Sequence record: MH051914
Length of the DNA stretch: 64,000 bases
Strand: one strand, 5' to 3'
Source: Enterobacteria phage vB_EcoM_IME338
The notes under the pieces were generated by a model, which was not told the DNA's origin, ran no database searches, and saw nothing but the letters and a program-made list of their open reading frames with translations. The position numbers were made by a program, and so were the translations under genes. Of the stretch, positions 3,603 through 64,000 are shown piece after piece. Position 1 is the first letter of the stretch; every line of letters begins with the position of its first letter.

Positions 3603-4502
3603 ATGGCTAAAGCAGAACTTGATAAATACTACACACCTGACGAAGTAATAAGGGTGTGTGAAGATAAGCTACAAAAGGTCTTTAAAGGCTCTATTTCGTG
3701 CATTATAGACCCCTGTGCAGGTGACGGAAGATGGAAAGATTCTTTTAAGAGGGTTTGTCAAGATGTTGTGCTATACGACATCGAACCAGACTCTGAAGAT
3801 GTTAGTACAAGAGACTTCCTGAAAGATGACTTAGAGATTCCAGATAAACCTTTTGCGATTGTTACCAACCCTCCATTTGGTAAGGCAAATAGTCTGTCTA
3901 CAAAGTTCTTTAACAAGGCTGCTACAATGAATCCAGACTACATTTGCTTCTTAGTTCCCATTAACTTTGGGAAGAAGAATCTTAGCAGACTTAGCAGAGA
4001 GTACACCTGCATTGATGAAGTAGAACTACCTAACCTTCATTTTGAAAGGATTGATGGAGTTACCTACTCAGCAAAAGAATCATCACTACGCTGTAACTTC
4101 CAAATCTGGAAGAGACAAAAACGGACAGATAAAATTTGTAAGATTGTCCCTGTGATAGTTGATGGCGTAAGAGTTTATAAGCGTGAGAAATTCACACTAT
4201 ACAGGCCACCATGTCACAAGATTGATGGTAAAGAGCAGCCAGTAGGTGTTTTAGGTAAACTGGATGGAAAAGATTTGTTCACGATTATTACACATGGTCG
4301 TAAGGCTGGCACTGTGAAGGTTTTTGAACCAGATAAAGATAAGGTGTCAGTGAAACAGTTTATCGAACCACACGTAGAGGGTCTTTACTCAGCAATCAAA
4401 CAAGAATGGTTTAATGATTTGAGAGATGGTTTTGCACTGAGTCATGCAGGTTCTATCAACTCACAAGAAATTATAAATACTTTAGAAAAACACTTGCATT
4501 AA
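3603..4502 (+). CDS. N6-adenine DNA methyltransferase, gamma-class (TaqI/Eco57I-like), orphan
   Basis: motif X YYTPDEV, motif I DPCAGDG (SAM binding), motif IV TNPPFG in gamma-class order; no adjacent restriction enzyme. Confidence 0.75.
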   Translation: MAKAELDKYYTPDEVIRVCEDKLQKVFKGSISCIIDPCAGDGRWKDSFKRVCQDVVLYDIEPDSEDVSTRDFLKDDLEIPDKPFAIVTNPPFGKANSLSTKFFNKAATMNPDYICFLVPINFGKKNLSRLSREYTCIDEVELPNLHFERIDGVTYSAKESSLRCNFQIWKRQKRTDKICKIVPVIVDGVRVYKREKFTLYRPPCHKIDGKEQPVGVLGKLDGKDLFTIITHGRKAGTVKVFEPDKDKVSVKQFIEPHVEGLYSAIKQEWFNDLRDGFALSHAGSINSQEIINTLEKHLH

Positions 4503-4565
4503 TAAAAGAATTTATATAGTATACCTGTAAACAAACCTAGTAGACGAGAGAGAGAGAGAGCAACT

Positions 4566-5405
4566 ATGAAATTCAAAGAGTTCCAGAGCAAAACACCTTG
4601 CAAGATTGATTTCGTTTGTGGTGTAGCTTCCTTCTTCATGGGGTACATGGATTGGGCTAACTGTGCAAAGCCTTACTCAGCAAACCGTAGCATTGAACGA
4701 CGAATTGCTAAACCTTACCTTAATGAAGAACTTCGTGAGGTGGATTTACGTTCCCGTGTTACGGGTGTACTGTTCAATGGAGAAGTTATCAACATTGATT
4801 CTCATGCGCGTGTAGAGAACTGGAAGAATGGGAAGTTAGGTGCTCCCAAGAACGGCCTTGTCTATGTGACCCTGTTTGCTGTTAATTCACAGGAAGAAGT
4901 AGATTTCCTCTACGACCAAGAAAACTCACTAGACTCACGAGCCACAAATGGTGACCAAGTTACAACTGCAATACTACGCTCTGGTTATAAGCCACAGACA
5001 GCGTTCACCAAGAAATTTACTGGTGCTGGTGTGTGGGCCTTATTAGGTCTCCGTGGATGCCTTGATGAAGCATTTGTACTCTATCAAGAAGAGCTTAAAC
5101 TTATTGATGCACTTGGCATTGATAAGGATGAGATGGATAAGTACAAAGAGAAGACTGTAAACGGTATTAAGCAGAAGTGTGAACTGCGTAAAAAGTACTC
5201 TGCTCCAATTATGGCAGCAATGCTTAAGAGCTTCAAAGAAAACCCTGAAAAGGCTACAAAGTTCTGGTTGGACTACCGTGATGATGATGAGTCTGTAAGC
5301 AGCTTCTTAGATGCCATGAAGACCCAGTATGACCAGAATGGTGGTGTGTTTCAAGGTTATGTAATGTCACAAGCTGACGTTGCATTTAGAGCTTATAAGG
5401 ACTGA
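4566..5405 (+). CDS. hypothetical protein
   Basis: 279-aa ORF, purine-rich RBS upstream. Confidence 0.55.
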   Translation: MKFKEFQSKTPCKIDFVCGVASFFMGYMDWANCAKPYSANRSIERRIAKPYLNEELREVDLRSRVTGVLFNGEVINIDSHARVENWKNGKLGAPKNGLVYVTLFAVNSQEEVDFLYDQENSLDSRATNGDQVTTAILRSGYKPQTAFTKKFTGAGVWALLGLRGCLDEAFVLYQEELKLIDALGIDKDEMDKYKEKTVNGIKQKCELRKKYSAPIMAAMLKSFKENPEKATKFWLDYRDDDESVSSFLDAMKTQYDQNGGVFQGYVMSQADVAFRAYKD

Positions 5406-24632: not shown

Positions 24633-25004
24633 ATGAAAAACAGAACAAACAAAGGCCAGTTTAAAAAAGGCCAGTCTGGAAACCCATCTGGAAGACCAAA
24701 AGGCTCTCGTAACAAAAGCTCACTCGTAAAAGCTCAACTGACCATTGATAATTCTGCTGAGTTCGCTGCAAAGCTGTTTGAGGCGATTGTTACAAGGGAC
24801 GCGGCTAAGCTTGCAGAGTTCGGTTTGACGACTGACGATGTAAACCTGAAGTCAATGATGGAAGCTGGTAAAACTATCATGACCCACTCAGCAGGTGAGA
24901 TGAAAGCAATTGCAGCAGACACTAAGAAGACTCCTGATAATGGTGGTCAACAACAGACAGATAACAAACCAACGTTCTCTGCTGTAGCGACTCTCAAAAA
25001 ATAA
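24633..25004 (+). CDS. hypothetical protein with basic N-terminal GNPSGRPKG motif
   Basis: 123-aa ORF, AAGAGG RBS. Confidence 0.5.
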   Translation: MKNRTNKGQFKKGQSGNPSGRPKGSRNKSSLVKAQLTIDNSAEFAAKLFEAIVTRDAAKLAEFGLTTDDVNLKSMMEAGKTIMTHSAGEMKAIAADTKKTPDNGGQQQTDNKPTFSAVATLKK

Positions 25005-25085: not shown

Positions 25086-26501
25086 ATGAGCGAGTTATTT
25101 AAACATGCGCACCTTCATGCAGGTCGAACTGAAAATGGTGCTGTAAACCATACTTCATCAATGTCTGCTCTGGTAGACTTCTACAAAGCCGCTGGCTCAA
25201 GCCGTAGCAATGTAGAAATCTTACCAGACCTGTTCTACAAAGCTTTGCGTGAGGATGTTGATGTTGCAGTTCGTATTTTACTGCATATGCGAGATGTAAG
25301 AGAAGGTATGGGTGAGCGTAAAGCTTTCCGAACTGTTTTACTTCAAGCGATTGAAGATAAGGTTTTAGAGCCTACACAGGTTCTTCGCATTATGGATAAG
25401 ATTGCAGAACTTGGTCGTTTTGATGACTTCAAAATCTTCGTAGGTACTCGTTTTGAGACAGATGCCTTCAAACATTTAGAATCAGCATTACTAGACCCTG
25501 CAACAGCAGGTTTAGCAGCTAAGTGGTTGCCACGAGTAAAACCACGCCACAAACAGTTTGTAAAACGTTTCTGCAAGTTTGCAAACTTAAGTGAGAAGGA
25601 GTATCGCACACTGTTGTCTGCACTATCTGATACGGTTGAGCAAAAAATCTCTGCTAATAAGTTTGGTAAGATTGACTACAGCAAGATTCCTTCACTCGCT
25701 GCTGCACGTTACCAAAAGCTCTTTAACCGTAAAGATGGGGAACGTTACAAAGCTTACATCGAGTCCCTCTCAAAAGGTGAGGCTAAGATTAACGCTGGTG
25801 CTGTTTACCCATACGATGTGATTAAATCTATCAAGTATGGTAATGCAGATGTTGCTAATGAGCAGTGGAAAGCACTACCAAACTGGATGGCAGAGGGTGA
25901 AAACATCTTGTGTATGACTGATGTTTCAAGCTCAATGTCTTGGGTGAATCTTGGTTCAATCACTGCCCTTGATATTGGTGTATCACTTGCCTTGTATGTA
26001 GCAGAACGCAATACAGGTTGCTTTAAAGATGAGTTAATGGTCTATTCAACAAACCCTCATTTCATTGAACTGAGTGGTGATTTACGAAACCGTCATCGTC
26101 AGGTAATGCGTCATGTTGAATATGGTTCAACTAACTTACAAGCAGCTTTTGACCGTATTCTTGAGGTAGGTAAGAGAAACAACTTGACTCAGAAAGATAT
26201 GCCAAGTAAGCTTATCATCTTCTCCGATATGGAGTTCAATCAGGTTGATGGAGCAAATGGTCGTACAAACTTTGAAGCAATTCAGAGTAAGTACAAAAAA
26301 GCTGGATACGAAATGCCACAACTAGTATTCTGGTACTTAGCAAACCGTAATGGGACTTGCGAAGTATCTGTTAAGGATAATGGTGTAGCAATGGTATCAG
26401 GGTTCTCTCCAGCCACTTTAAAAGCTCTGCTTGGTGGTGAGAAGTTTGACCCAATCAGCGTAATGCTCAAAGCAGTAATGATTGACCGTTACATCTGGTA
26501 A
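25086..26501 (+). CDS. rsr: Ro60/Rsr-like protein (C-terminal vWA with MIDAS; TROVE-like N-terminus)
   Basis: MIDAS DVSSSMS...T...D; C-terminal blocks IIFSDMEF and NRNGTCEVSVKDNGVAMVSGFSPATLKAL align with recalled human Ro60 vWA region; helical N-terminal region. Confidence 0.65.
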   Translation: MSELFKHAHLHAGRTENGAVNHTSSMSALVDFYKAAGSSRSNVEILPDLFYKALREDVDVAVRILLHMRDVREGMGERKAFRTVLLQAIEDKVLEPTQVLRIMDKIAELGRFDDFKIFVGTRFETDAFKHLESALLDPATAGLAAKWLPRVKPRHKQFVKRFCKFANLSEKEYRTLLSALSDTVEQKISANKFGKIDYSKIPSLAAARYQKLFNRKDGERYKAYIESLSKGEAKINAGAVYPYDVIKSIKYGNADVANEQWKALPNWMAEGENILCMTDVSSSMSWVNLGSITALDIGVSLALYVAERNTGCFKDELMVYSTNPHFIELSGDLRNRHRQVMRHVEYGSTNLQAAFDRILEVGKRNNLTQKDMPSKLIIFSDMEFNQVDGANGRTNFEAIQSKYKKAGYEMPQLVFWYLANRNGTCEVSVKDNGVAMVSGFSPATLKALLGGEKFDPISVMLKAVMIDRYIW

Positions 26502-26519: not shown

Positions 26520-26548
26520 TTGACAACGTGTTTGATACCCTTTAATAT
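26520..26548 (+). promoter_or_regulatory. sigma70-like promoter (tRNA/ncRNA array), overlapped by palindrome GGGTAT...ATACCC
   Basis: TTGACA-N17-TAATAT. Confidence 0.6.
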
Positions 26549-26610: not shown

Positions 26611-26640
26611 TTGACAACCACTAAAAAATAATGTTAAAGT
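26611..26640 (+). promoter_or_regulatory. second sigma70-like promoter for tRNA array
   Basis: TTGACA-N17/18-TAAAGT. Confidence 0.55.
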
Positions 26641-26835: not shown

Positions 26836-26908
26836 CAGAAGACCAATTACAGCAAACTTAATCTTATTCATCTGACACGAAATCGGACAAAGAAGAGATT
26901 TGGTCTGG
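26836..26908 (+). ncRNA. Y-RNA-like structured element E1
   Basis: 5' CAGAAGACCAATTACAGCAA ... 3' TTGGTCTGG; terminal helix AGACCAA/TTGGTCT. Confidence 0.4.
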
Positions 26909-27247: not shown

Positions 27248-27308
27248 ATTTTGAGAGGGCTATTTAGCCCCTCCCTTAAAGGGTTCTTACGAGTATTCTT
27301 TAAAGGAG

Positions 27309-27382
27309 CAGAAGACCAAATACAGCAAGTTATTTAAAATTTCAAGCCAATTTAATTTTGAAAAATTTAAAACTTGGTCTGG
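27309..27382 (+). ncRNA. Y-RNA-like structured element E3
   Basis: 5' CAGAAGACCAAATACAGCAA ... 3' TTGGTCTGG. Confidence 0.4.
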
Positions 27383-27395
27383 CTCAACAAATTTA

Positions 27396-27526
27396 CAGAA
27401 AACCGTTTACAGCAAAACTTAAACAATCTATTTCTCGGTAAAGAAAAGGCGAAGGTTCGATTCCTTCACTCGGCAGATGTCGAGTTGGTGTAATGGTAGC
27501 ACTTAAGATGATAAACAACGGTCTGG
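27396..27526 (+). ncRNA. YrlA-like RNA candidate: terminal helix enclosing a permuted tRNA-like module
   Basis: ends CAGAAAACCGTTTACAGCAA / AACGGTCTGG; internal T-arm GAAGG-TTCGATT-CCTTC, closed acceptor-like hairpin ACTCGGC-AGAT-GTCGAGT, D-arm GTGT-AATGGTA-GCAC. Confidence 0.5.
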
Positions 27527-27529
27527 TAA

Positions 27530-27669
27530 TTATCTTTGTAGATAAGTTATTAAGCTTACCTGTGAGTATGCGACCACAAAGGGTGAAAGGGTAAATTCTA
27601 GATTTAAACCCAACAAGGCACATCGCTACAGACCTTAAGCAAGTCTGGGTAGCTTATCTACAAAGATAA
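27530..27669 (+). ncRNA. structured RNA candidate with perfect 17-bp terminal stem
   Basis: TTATCTTTGTAGATAAG pairs with CTTATCTACAAAGATAA about 105 nt away; inner bulged hairpin CTACAGAC/GTCTGGGTAG. Confidence 0.4.
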
Positions 27670-27675
27670 TTTAAT

Positions 27676-29395: not shown

Positions 29396-29474
29396 GTTCC
29401 AGTATCCCAATTGGCAGAGAGGCCAGACTTAAAATCTGTGTTATGTATCGGTTCGAATCCGATATGGAGTACCA
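29396..29474 (+). tRNA. tRNA-Leu-like (anticodon TAA), atypical 5' half
   Basis: T-arm ATCGG-TTCGAAT-CCGAT, anticodon loop CTTAAAA, acceptor GTTCCAG/ATGGAGT with two G-U pairs; D-arm pairing ambiguous. Confidence 0.45.
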
Positions 29475-29479
29475 AATTT

Positions 29480-29555
29480 AGCGGTATAGCATAACTGGCA
29501 ATGCAACAGTCTCTGAAGCTGTCTTATTAAGGTTCAAATCCTTATGCCGCTGCCA
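29480..29555 (+). tRNA. tRNA-Gln (anticodon CTG)
   Basis: D GCAT/ATGC, anticodon arm ACAGT-CTCTGAA-GCTGT, T-arm TAAGG-TTCAAAT-CCTTA, CCA. Confidence 0.75.
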
Positions 29556-61615: not shown

Positions 61616-61886
61616 ATCTGGTCAATACACTCGCAAGGTGTACCAGTTCTCTTATGAACTTCTCCGCATTTCTACGGAGTGTCGGACTATATCACGTAGC
61701 AGTGATGCTACCGTTGCACTTGGGGATGGTCATTAGCTTACCACCCTACTCTACTCAGTTCATACGTTAAGTATGCTTTTCGATAGTCTCTGAACGTTCC
61801 TCTTAAGAGGCTTCGCTGCTGATTACCATATCTTTCCAGACTTAGGCTTCCAGCAATTCACAACGTTTTACATGCGCCACTGACGC
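61616..61886 (-). other. group I intron interrupting the DNA polymerase gene (boundaries within a few nt)
   Basis: minus-strand RNA carries group I core: P4-like GAAUUGCUGGAAGCC, UAUGGUAAUCAGCAG, P7 strands GUUCAGAGACUA and GAUAUAGUCCGAC; exon 1 frame hits a stop inside. Confidence 0.75.
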
Positions 61887-64000
61887 ATAAATGCCATTTT
61901 TGGCTTTCTTACGACCTTTTGTAATCTCGTGAAGAAGCTCCTCATCCTGCGTCTCCCTACAACGAACAATATCATCTTCCTTGTTTAGACCGAAGTAAAT
62001 ACTATTCAGTGTATGTGCATCAGTACCTGTGTAGACTTCGTAGAGGTCATTCTCAGCATCATAACGAAGATACTTATCAGTTTCTGGATTGAGGTACTTA
62101 TCGAGATGCTTGCAATAGTATCTTCCATCCTCTTGCTTGGTAAATTCTACTGACTCTTTACCTTCAGTTACCGCTTTGGTGAAGTCTTTATCACCCATAA
62201 AGTTACACAGTAAAACAAGCTGTGCAGAGTTCTGGTCAACTGAAACGATATTAGTCCCTTCCTCGCAAATCCACACCTCCCTCATAGGTGCTCCATAGAC
62301 AGCAGCACCAGACGGTACGTTTACAATACCATATTGTGTCATACGTCCAGTTGAAGTACCAAACACCATTGCACCAGCACTAAGGCGACCATCAGGACGA
62401 ATCTGGTTCAACCAACCTTTTTCATCATCCTTTGAGTTCTCAATAGTTCTGCGTCGGTGCATCAAGGTATAGTATTTCGCAATCTTCTGTCCAAGCTCAC
62501 CTTCAATCGTATCATAAGATGATTCAGTAAGTTTTGGTGAAGTACGGATTAAGCAAGGCTCAAGCAAATCTGTGTACTTCTTCACAGACCAGTTATGCTC
62601 AATGTACTGGACACCTTCGTGTTCAACATAACTCAAACCACACCGTTCCACCATCTCATCCCATTTAGGATGCTTTGTAATCATCTTTTTGTTGTCTTTG
62701 AAGCGACAAACCTTAACAGGACGACCATCAGAGTCTTTCTTATAGTTCCAGTCATCTGGAATCCAACCAACTGATTTCAAGTAGTCTTTAACAACTGCTA
62801 CCTGAGTCATACGAGAAACTTCGAACTCAATTGGTGTATATGGTGCATCAATCAAACCTGTGTAGCGACTTGACTCAAGTTCAAAGTGGTTAACAACATG
62901 ACTGTTATAGTACTTCACAGTCTTAACTGTTTTTACTGGCTTCCAGTCTTTGCATTTCTTACCAATCTTTGCATTCAACTCATTGCAAATTGCACGAGCA
63001 TCCTTCATTGCTACAAAGCCTTCCTTGTACTCTTCACCAGTTACCGAGTTGGTTGGTGTATAGCAATTCCGCTTTTCAATGTTAAAAATCTTTGTAGTTG
63101 GCTTACCAAATGGCTTGATTTCATATGTCTGCATCTCACCGTTACGTACCTGTTGACGATACTTTGTCTTAGGGTACTTGGTAATTCTCTTCAGTCCATC
63201 TGCATGACCAAATGCTTCAACATACTCATTCCAAGCTTTTGCAAATTCTTCTCCAGTGACTTTACCTTTGGTCTTAATAGTTGGAGGAAGATGTGGTTCA
63301 ACTTCTGAAGCAAGCTCGTTAGTCAACTTGTCAAGTTCCTTTACATGGAACTCCATAAGCTCTTTATCAGCTTTCCAACCATTGATAGCCTGTTGACTCA
63401 TCCAGAAAGATGTTTCTTTAGCTCGCATGTAGGTTTCATAGGTGTCTACGCCACACTTCTTTAGCTTCAGATATTCATTATCCAATGCACGTTTAGTTTT
63501 GGCGTTAATACGGATATCTTCCACAACACGAGTGAAGATTTCTGCATTCCACACACCCCAATGTTCAATCTCTGGTTTACGGACACCAACACGAGCACCC
63601 CATGCTGCCAAGCCATGAGCACCTTTATAGCCTTTTGGAGTTGGTCTATCCATCCACTGAACACGAGACTGGATAAGAGAATCCTGAAAGAAATTACTCC
63701 ACGGCTTACACTTTGGATTATCAAAGTTCCACAAATCGGGTGCAATGTGATTGAAAACCCACCAGTCATAACCGAGACCGTTATGGATGCAAAGACGTTT
63801 TGCCTTTAACGCAAATTCAACACCTTCACGTAAACCACCCTTAATGTACTTGGTATACTTGTGACCGAGGATAGGTTCATCTGTAAAGACCCATACAGGT
63901 GGCTCTTCATCGTCAGATTTATAGTCTGCGAAAGCCATTACGTGCACTTTAGTGAACTCAAGGAGTAAACCATCAGTTTCTGTATCACCAACTAAATGTA
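61887..64000 (-). CDS. DNA polymerase family A, exon 1 (N-terminal part, runs off window end)
   Basis: Exo I motif DTETDGL in the frame extending past 63947 to the window edge; motif A VSVDQNSAQL; ends inside motif B RKKAKNGIY. Confidence 0.75.

Follow-up and report, generated by a model that had tools for sequence, protein, structure and literature searches.

The 64,000-nucleotide (nt) stretch of Enterobacteria phage vB_EcoM_IME338 analysed here (sequence record MH051914; hereafter the window) carries an element, E4, that at the level of sequence comparison is a real Y-RNA-like tRNA mimic, by its anatomy, by the covariation of four helices and by its linkage to the gene of a Ro60-fold protein. 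We consider it probable, at roughly 0.75, that E4 is a Y-RNA-type non-coding RNA and the tRNA-mimic partner of this phage protein; its expression and its binding are both what we infer. E4 lies at the start of a plus-strand array of 22 tRNAs (called by ARAGORN), directly downstream of the protein's open reading frame (ORF, 25086–26501). As read from the termini that they share, it is one of four paralogous RNAs (E1–E4) in a much wider family, which the earlier note on this DNA had not recognised.

Particles of Ro60 and Y RNA are conserved from bacteria to humans. YrlA and its mimicry of tRNA are already known, as are Y RNAs in phages that encode TROVE proteins and the Ro60-like fold of gp130 (bas63_0130), the orthologue of the protein in phage Bas63. 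Neither RNAs of the E1–E4 type nor their CAGCAA signature nor the family-wide pairing with DUF2828-type proteins turned up in Rfam 15, in the inspected GenBank annotations or in searchable literature. This locus offers a complete system in which to study the tRNA-like domain of bacterial Y RNAs: a protein with the Ro60 fold and four candidate Y RNAs, of which one is a tRNA mimic, in a genetically tractable group of E. coli and Salmonella phages, where gp130 already has a phenotype, in that it counters ppl defence. Binding and knockout work has direct handles in the CAGCAA motif and the terminal helix, and this simple signature recognises candidate RNA partners across many phage lineages.

Anatomy and covariation of E4

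The earlier note had described a perfect T-arm, a closed 7-bp acceptor-like hairpin and a D-arm, in that order, with the acceptor capped and the terminal helix standing in for the anticodon arm. All three arms read exactly so in the window (Table 1), one of the acceptor pairs being G-U, and the overall layout is borne out, with the order V, T, acceptor stem and D that is seen in YrlA (Chen et al., 2014; PMC4201824). The terminal strands AAACCGTT (27400–27407) and AACGGTCT (27517–27524) form a helix of 8 base pairs (bp), including one A·C mismatch. Between them the nucleotides that are invariant in tRNA are all there (U8, A14, G18, G19, A21, T54-T55-C56, A58 and the G53-C61 pair), the position of the anticodon arm is occupied by linkers to the terminal helix, and the acceptor is closed by a 4-nt loop. 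Minimum free energy (MFE) folding recovers the T, acceptor and D hairpins, and the V-arm-like pairing is kept with another sequence (CTTTC/GAGAG) at the same place in relative L015.

A custom scanner for a T-arm, an abutting closed hairpin, 2 nt and a D-arm returned E4 as its sole match on either strand of the window, and none of the window's tRNA–tRNA junctions passed it. ARAGORN made no tRNA or tmRNA call on E4, and the Rfam tRNA model covers only its T-arm (14.9 bits). A permuted but functional tRNA gene was ruled out by this silence of ARAGORN, by the missing anticodon arm and by an acceptor that is not open. In the permuted tRNA genes of Cyanidioschyzon merolae and in two-piece or permuted tmRNA the 3′ half of the cloverleaf is encoded ahead of the 5′ half, as in E4; those RNAs mature with a working anticodon arm or a tag reading frame, whereas E4 has neither.

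By BLAST the region is best placed among the Felix O1-like myoviruses (Felixounavirus), with Salmonella phage BPS17L1 98% identical and 247 records spanning at least 80% of the 3.4-kilobase (kb) query. E4 is conserved in 236 phage records, and in the records listed among these it is without annotation or lies under a spurious ORF. In relatives the sequence of the acceptor hairpin is replaced wholesale with its pairing kept. Under a fixed parse, which sets the 7 nt directly after the T stem against the 7 nt directly before the U8-N9-D stem, 15 of the 19 tRNA-like members pair at 7/7 positions, with 13 different stem sequences. Three of the four exceptions reflect mis-anchoring of the D-arm and reach 5–6 of 7 pairs when parsed again with 3-bp D stems; the fourth (L045a) has 6/7.

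For 11 distant members, none of them a Felix-like sequence, RNAalifold predicted the outer helix, the T-arm, the acceptor hairpin and the D-arm, and of the 21 pairs 18 were compensatory. A covariance model, R1, derived from these 11 members alone, matched E4 (27400–27525) over its full length (model positions 1–123) at 54.6 bits and E ~4e-9. In the window, E2 scored 21.7 bits through its termini alone, and the highest score of a tandem-tRNA junction was 21.2 bits. In 757 kb from 73 sources R1 gave 39 matches at E<0.01, all on the gene strand, the low-scoring ones including tandem-tRNA junctions.

Covariation statistics were taken from the 24 best R1 matches (alignment A5). The fraction of paired cells was 93.9%, against 62.7% in shuffles, none of 500 of which reached the observed value, and 36–49% with slid partners. 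Double changes occurred in 19 of 21 pairs, and the covariation score was 0.795 versus 0.21. All 6 pairs of the terminal helix (helix 1) covary, with 97% of cells paired, and the T-arm (helix 2) is paired in 99%. The Levitt pair, 15–48, covaries between G-C and A-U in 13 family members. Family members adjoin a DUF2828/DUF7788 gene on the same strand, as does E4. On this comparative evidence of conservation, paired replacement and a full-length R1 match, the structure of E4 is beyond chance, and the element is a CAGCAA-type Y-like RNA as judged by its terminal helix, (U/A)CAGCAA and 3′ G around T, closed acceptor and D arms.

The cap loop of the acceptor-like stem varies among relatives. It starts with a discriminator and CCA in L015 (7461–7579) and L016 (GCCAAACA), and likewise in L091 (6457–6583; ACCAACTAT), in L045 (6947–7066; ACCAAAATCT) and in L021 (CCCAAC... 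and GCCAATT...; 4752–4881 and 4378–4509). Loops of this kind, which resemble the 3′ end of a tRNA with a leader after it, suggest maturation of the RNase P/CCA type in those lineages. M. smegmatis YrlA differs in that its CCA is completed after cleavage, whereas some phage relatives of E4 encode CCA in the cap loop.

A terminal module linked to a Ro60-fold protein

The four paralogues have in common the module 5′-AGACCNN-NN(N)CAGCAA ... NNGGTCT-G-3′. The 20-nt pattern CAGAARACC-N-WWTRCAGCAA gave four matches against 0.28 expected, starting at 26836, 27003, 27309 and 27396, all on the plus strand within 700 nt, and in each of E1–E4 it is followed 55–130 nt on by GGTCTGG. The ends pair as a helix of 7–8 bp; E1 and E3 share AGACCAA/TTGGTCT, and E2 and E4 share AGACCGT/ACGGTCT, so that compensatory differences exist among the paralogues themselves. 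The tRNA-like interior is confined to E4. E4 starts 899 nt past the stop codon of the Ro60-like gene, both being on the plus strand, a distance inside the 4 kb set for a YrlA gene beside a Ro60 (TROVE) orthologue. In the window all copies of the docking module lie in the 700 nt nearest the gene, with none in the remaining 2.8 kb of the tRNA array.

The comparison set comprised 80 viral loci encoding relatives of the protein, together with four Logan contigs and six annotated phages. A strict scan for the module (a helix of at least 6 bp, 1–4 nt, C[AC]GCAA, the complementary strand and G) was applied to 65 distant loci, where the protein is only 40–46% identical. On the gene strand it gave 77 matches in the 102 kb lying within 800 nt of the gene and 24 in the 566 kb elsewhere; on the opposite strand the same two fractions gave 6 and 20. 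At least one gene-strand module stands beside the gene in 48/65 of these loci. From two to four modules adjoin the gene in Listeria P100, Mycobacterium LeBron, Campylobacter CP30A, Bacillus FADO, Staphylococcus S-CoN_Ph5 and Enterococcus iF6, and the helix sequence of these flanking modules is different nearly every time. Several loci that bear the module, L021 among them, are without any tRNA called by ARAGORN; it is thus the gene, and not tRNA arrays, to which the module is linked. The interiors differ, being tRNA-like modules, domains of 200–260 nt or small hairpins. The 200–260-nt class, found beside the gene in L025, L032, L034, L042, L048 and L052, has a large conserved interior that starts with a GTACAGCAAAAAGTAC hairpin and shows no tRNA-like features.

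The earlier note had also spoken of a Ro60-like protein, and as regards the fold this description holds for the neighbouring protein. An AlphaFold (AF2) model built from 40 homologues has a pLDDT of 88.5, and the ten best Foldseek matches to it are all Ro60/TROVE chains (TM 0.48–0.68). Full-length fold matches are Ro60 chains only, the next best being isolated vWA domains. The model predicts a HEAT-repeat ring and a C-terminal vWA domain with a MIDAS motif, the residues of which (DxSxS...T...D) are invariant in the homologue alignment. In the sequence Pfam detects no TROVE signature; the relation to Ro60 is visible by fold comparison only, and sequence searches find no Ro60. The PhageMaP preprint described gp130 as structurally Ro60-like and as countering ppl, and guessed that some annotated tRNAs might be Y RNAs, none being identified (PMC11482910). 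Among sequenced phage records, 709 encode homologues of the protein; they include those of Listeria P100-type, Staphylococcus, Campylobacter and KVP40-type Vibrio phages and cluster L mycobacteriophages. In Listeria phage P100 (L084, 3578–4455) an HD phosphohydrolase and an RtcB-type ‘tRNA splicing ligase’ lie within ~1.3 kb after the Ro60-like gene, an arrangement that recalls the bacterial rsr-yrlA-rtcBA operon.

In the mechanism that we propose, the sigma-70-like sites at 26520 and 26611, a short way downstream of the protein gene, would drive transcription of E4 together with the adjacent tRNAs, and E4 would be released once host tRNA-processing nucleases excise the flanking tRNAs. The docking site for the ring-shaped protein would consist of the terminal helix, the single-stranded CAGCAA next to it and the 3′ G, at the RNA position held by GGUCCGA in animal Y RNAs and by GNCGAA in bacterial YrlA. 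The interior would fold into the acceptor/T/D ‘elbow’ half of a tRNA, and the capped acceptor end, together with the lack of an anticodon arm, would leave E4 unable to decode. This elbow may serve as an effector module for host factors that recognise tRNA, candidates being TruB, DusA, RNase P, the CCA-adding enzyme and an exoribonuclease such as PNPase; the tethering of PNPase by Y RNA is a precedent (PMC4201824), and so is the complex of Ro60, Yrl RNA and PNPase of phage phiLo (PMC12135203). E1–E3, with the same docking module and other interiors, would supply this one protein with interchangeable adaptors or gates. For the ribonucleoprotein (RNP) as a whole, a part in surveying or degrading RNA, or in protecting the pool of tRNAs during infection, appears to be most likely.

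Relation to known RNAs and competing explanations

The earlier note had called the element YrlA-like. In YrlA a helix joins the 5′ and 3′ ends around an interior of V, T, capped acceptor and D, with the 5′ motif GNCGAAN0-1G as the proposed Rsr contact; the RNA is modified by TruB and DusA, and that of M. smegmatis is cleaved by RNase P (PMC4201824). The E4 family resembles YrlA (RF02553) in having a terminal helix whose 5′ strand carries a short conserved motif on its 3′ side; in the interior order of V hairpin, T-arm, closed acceptor-like stem-loop and D-arm; in lying within ~1 kb, on the same strand, of the gene for a Ro60-fold protein, with more than one Y RNA per locus; and in the covariation of the Levitt pair in 13 members of the family, of the kind that Chen et al. 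noted for YrlA (PMC4201824), the pair being non-canonical in the Felix group. Unlike YrlA, it has (U/A)CAGCAA at the place of GNCGAAN0-1G, its protein partner is a DUF2828/DUF7788 protein without a detectable TROVE sequence signal, and E1–E4 are interleaved with a functional tRNA array. Some relatives are matched by RF02553, namely Enterococcus phage iF6 (47.8 and 34.4 bits) and Mycobacterium phage LeBron (39.8 bits), with E from 1e-7 to 1e-3 and all scores under the gathering score of 69 bits, and one iF6 element carries the intermediate motif ACAGCGA. The YrlA-like description thus stands for E4 in its layout, and relatives score 34–48 bits on RF02553, but E4 itself is not in the curated YrlA family. 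We read the E4 family, from these alignments, as a divergent sister of YrlA which accompanies a Ro60 branch that is itself divergent, and not as YrlA proper. GGCGAAG at 27448–27454 was considered as a YrlA motif and rejected, for it sits at the V/T junction and is GGAGAAG in relatives.

Several observations weigh against E4 as a Y-RNA-type partner of the protein. The Infernal check with the Rfam YrlA model that the earlier note had proposed was negative, RF02553 giving no match on E4 even at E<=10 in searches of 851 nt and 151 nt; the Rfam Y_RNA model likewise gave none at its gathering threshold or at E<=10. The GNCGAAN0-1G motif is not in the 5′ region of E4, which reads ...ACCGTTTACAGCAAAAC. 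The docking helix of the window's E4 contains an A·C mismatch (27401/27523) where relatives have G-C, and its Levitt pair is A·C, with A·A in other Felix-like phages. The thermodynamic stability of E4 is ordinary (z −1.1 to −1.7 for MFE), so that the case rests on comparative evidence and not on stability. Alignment A5 was fitted to R1 and includes three Aeromonas-phage matches (L054, L060 and L075) in which the acceptor hairpin does not form; these are doubtful members and may be pseudo-tRNA arrays. As to the protein, Pfam finds only DUF7788 and DUF2828 in ORF 25086–26501, with no TROVE (PF05731) even at E<=10, and neither single-sequence nor profile searches of the PDB sequences found a Ro60. 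Bas63 gp130 counters ppl alone, whether plasmid-borne or inserted in T7 (PMC11482910), which means that the phage RNAs are not needed for that activity; E1–E4 may instead regulate or redirect gp130.

The main competing explanation holds that E4 is a split or permuted tRNA-like gene, in which RNase P would cut 5′ of G27479 and the 3′ strand would be trimmed to A27475 plus CCA, giving a two-piece molecule. Its free, possibly chargeable acceptor end would be a decoy or a substrate for acceptor-end enzymes or toxins, an activity that could coexist with protein binding. Such processing would fit the 7-bp acceptor stem and the A at the discriminator position of E4, as well as the cap loops that begin N73-CCA in several relatives (L015/L016, L091, L021 and L045). 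However, the cap in the window is only AGAT, without CCA; the absence of an anticodon arm anywhere in the family means that no decoding tRNA is possible; and neither S. Typhimurium YrlA nor D. radiodurans Yrn1 is cleaved (PMC4201824). We regard a split tRNA-like gene as unlikely.

That E1–E4 sit between tRNAs on the same strand, with no plus-strand terminator-like site called inside the cluster, would also be expected of spacers in the tRNA operon that work in cis, for processing or stabilisation (folding punctuation for RNase P, E or Z, for example), and independently of the Ro60-like protein. Yet the same module flanks the protein gene where ARAGORN calls no tRNA, as in L021, and in the window it is limited to the 700 nt nearest the gene, with none in the other 2.8 kb of the array; a conserved single-stranded CAGCAA and modular interiors would likewise be unexpected for spacers, which makes this a very improbable account. 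It is scarcely credible that E4 is a functionless, decaying remnant of a tandem tRNA duplication (a 3′ half plus the next 5′ half) or lies antisense to a small protein gene. Where tRNAs stand in tandem, their junctions can imitate the T-then-D order (Chen, 2014; PMC4201824), and a 76-amino-acid minus-strand ORF does lie at 27393–27623, where Bas63 annotates bas63_0137. Against a remnant, E4 is kept in 236 genomes with whole helices replaced compensatorily, its acceptor strands are complementary to each other, as would not be expected of unrelated neighbouring tRNAs, and tandem-tRNA junctions reach at most ~33 bits on R1 versus 54.6 for E4. The minus-strand ORFs over E4 vary in frame, start and length between relatives, which argues against an antisense gene. 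For E4 an artefact of a tandem-tRNA junction was ruled out by the mutually complementary acceptor strands, the lack of a flanking tRNA half and the R1 score; such junctions do account for low-scoring R1 matches, for example window 29418–29515.

The Ro60 of Thermus phage phiLo binds Yrl RNAs and the host PNPase (PMC12135203; PDB 9l5y); unlike the protein studied here it is a recognisable TROVE protein, its Yrl1 and Yrl2 carry a CGAA motif, and no tRNA-like module was reported for them (PMC12135203). Metazoan Y RNAs differ from E4 in having another recognition sequence and no tRNA-like module, and the identity of the phage protein to Ro60 is 11–16%.

The short paralogues also resemble the Class I RNAs of Dictyostelium. 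DUF2828 is a eukaryotic family as well as a phage one. The Rfam model for Dictyostelid Class I RNA (RF01414) gave sub-threshold matches exactly on E2 (18.0 bits) and E3 (16.6 bits), and further ones on L044 4795–4844 (24.7 bits) and Listeria P100 (L084) 1121–1176 (23.1 bits), against a gathering score of 41.5. Class I RNAs are ~60 nt long, start with AAG and end with CUGU; their 6-bp stem covaries, they contain the motif CCUUACAGCAA, and their interior is variable (Kjellin et al., 2021; PMC7919456). The short phage elements similarly have a variable, covarying terminal stem of ~6 bp with ..UUACAGCAA right after the 5′ strand, ends of the form AG.../...CUG(U), ~60 nt, a variable interior and clustered multi-copy genes. 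They differ in that the best-conserved U is at motif position 4 in the phages and not at position 3, and in Dictyostelium the only direct binder shown for a Class I RNA is the RRM protein Rnp1A. Four proteins were pulled down with DdR-21, a Class I RNA, one being the uncharacterised DDB_G0281243.

A joint reading, which we offer tentatively and hold to be unlikely, is that DUF2828/DUF7788 proteins form a second branch of Ro60, unrecognisable by sequence, that uses its own class of Y RNA everywhere, and that the abundant Class I RNAs are eukaryotic members of the same RNP. The RNAs would then be defined by a variable terminal helix, UUACAGCAA and a 3′ CUG end, with interchangeable interiors. 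Since DUF2828 is also eukaryotic, Class I RNAs of the same terminal design would be its eukaryotic members, and they could bind a Dictyostelium DUF2828 protein, for which DDB_G0281243 would be a candidate. Convergence of the short phage elements and the Class I RNAs is another possible source of the likeness.

Features of the locus and its surroundings

Table 1. Positions in the window of the Ro60-like gene, the four paralogous elements and the parts of E4.
Feature	Position	Strand	Remarks
Ro60-fold protein gene	25086..26501	+	471 amino acids; Pfam DUF2828 + DUF7788; PHROG 850 ‘RNA-binding protein’; orthologue Bas63 gp130
Two sigma-70-like promoter matches, between Ro60-like gene and first tRNA	26520-26548, 26611-26640	+	consensus matches only; number not enriched over shuffles
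E1, short paralogue; helix AGACCAA/TTGGTCT, motif TTACAGCAA, 3′ G, without tRNA-like module	26840..26907	+	
E2, short paralogue; helix AGACCGT/ACGGTCT, motif ATGCAGCAA	27007..27061	+	R1 matches termini, 21.7 bits
E3, short paralogue; helix AGACCAA/TTGGTCT, motif ATACAGCAA, A/U-rich internal hairpin	27313..27381	+	
E4, Y-RNA-like RNA with permuted tRNA-like module (whole element)	27400..27525	+	R1 54.6 bits; 236 phage records
E4 terminal helix 5′ strand (27400-27407) and conserved single-stranded motif TACAGCAA (27408-27415)	27400..27415	+	proposed protein-docking site; pairs with 27517-27524
E4 V-arm-like hairpin TTTCT-CGGTAA-AGAAA	27431..27446	+	MFE fold; relative L015
E4 T-arm GAAGG-TTCGATT-CCTTC	27451..27467	+	stem 27451-27455, loop 27456-27462, stem 27463-27467
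E4 closed acceptor-like hairpin ACTCGGC-AGAT-GTCGAGT	27468..27485	+	27468-27474/27475-27478/27479-27485; 7 bp including one G-U; A at discriminator position
E4 U8-G9 equivalent (TG, 27486-27487) and D-arm GTGT-AATGGTA-GCAC	27486..27502	+	GTGT 27488-27491, AATGGTA 27492-27498, GCAC 27499-27502
E4 terminal helix 3′ strand AACGGTCT and conserved 3′ G	27517..27525	+	helix 1 covariation

The minus-strand ORF at 27393–27623 was rejected as a gene, as it is not conserved. Small ‘hypothetical protein’ ORFs are annotated over E4 and the next element in other records, such as L094 2972–3124 (Bas63 bas63_0137, antisense) and wV8 gene 48, among others; the minus-strand ORFs over E4 are probably spurious.

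Between E4 and tRNA-Lys lies a further element of 145 nt (27528–27672, plus strand) with a 24-bp terminal helix. Its MFE is −47.9 kcal/mol (z −6.1), none of 200 shuffles being as stable, and relatives have a second sequence variant in which compensatory changes preserve the helix (TCTTTGTAG/CTACAAAGA versus TCTTTGCAG/CTGCAAAGA). The element is matched by no Rfam model and is without the CAGCAA signature; probably it represents a further structured RNA.

At 27248–27308 a non-tRNA segment of ~60 nt, with a hairpin-like GAGAGGGCTATTTAGCCCCTCCC, occupies the place where relatives have tRNA-Asp directly after tRNA-Tyr, and ARAGORN found no tRNA-Asp anywhere in the window. HNH homing-endonuclease genes are inserted into the RNA cluster in other relatives. 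Directly upstream of the Ro60-like gene, at 24633–25004 on the plus strand, is a gene for a DUF5681 protein of 123 amino acids, which occupies the same upstream place in the three Ounavirinae-like relatives fetched (L090–L092). Farther away, on the minus strand at 61662–61945, the window contains a group I intron match of 62.2 bits, against an Rfam gathering score of 50.

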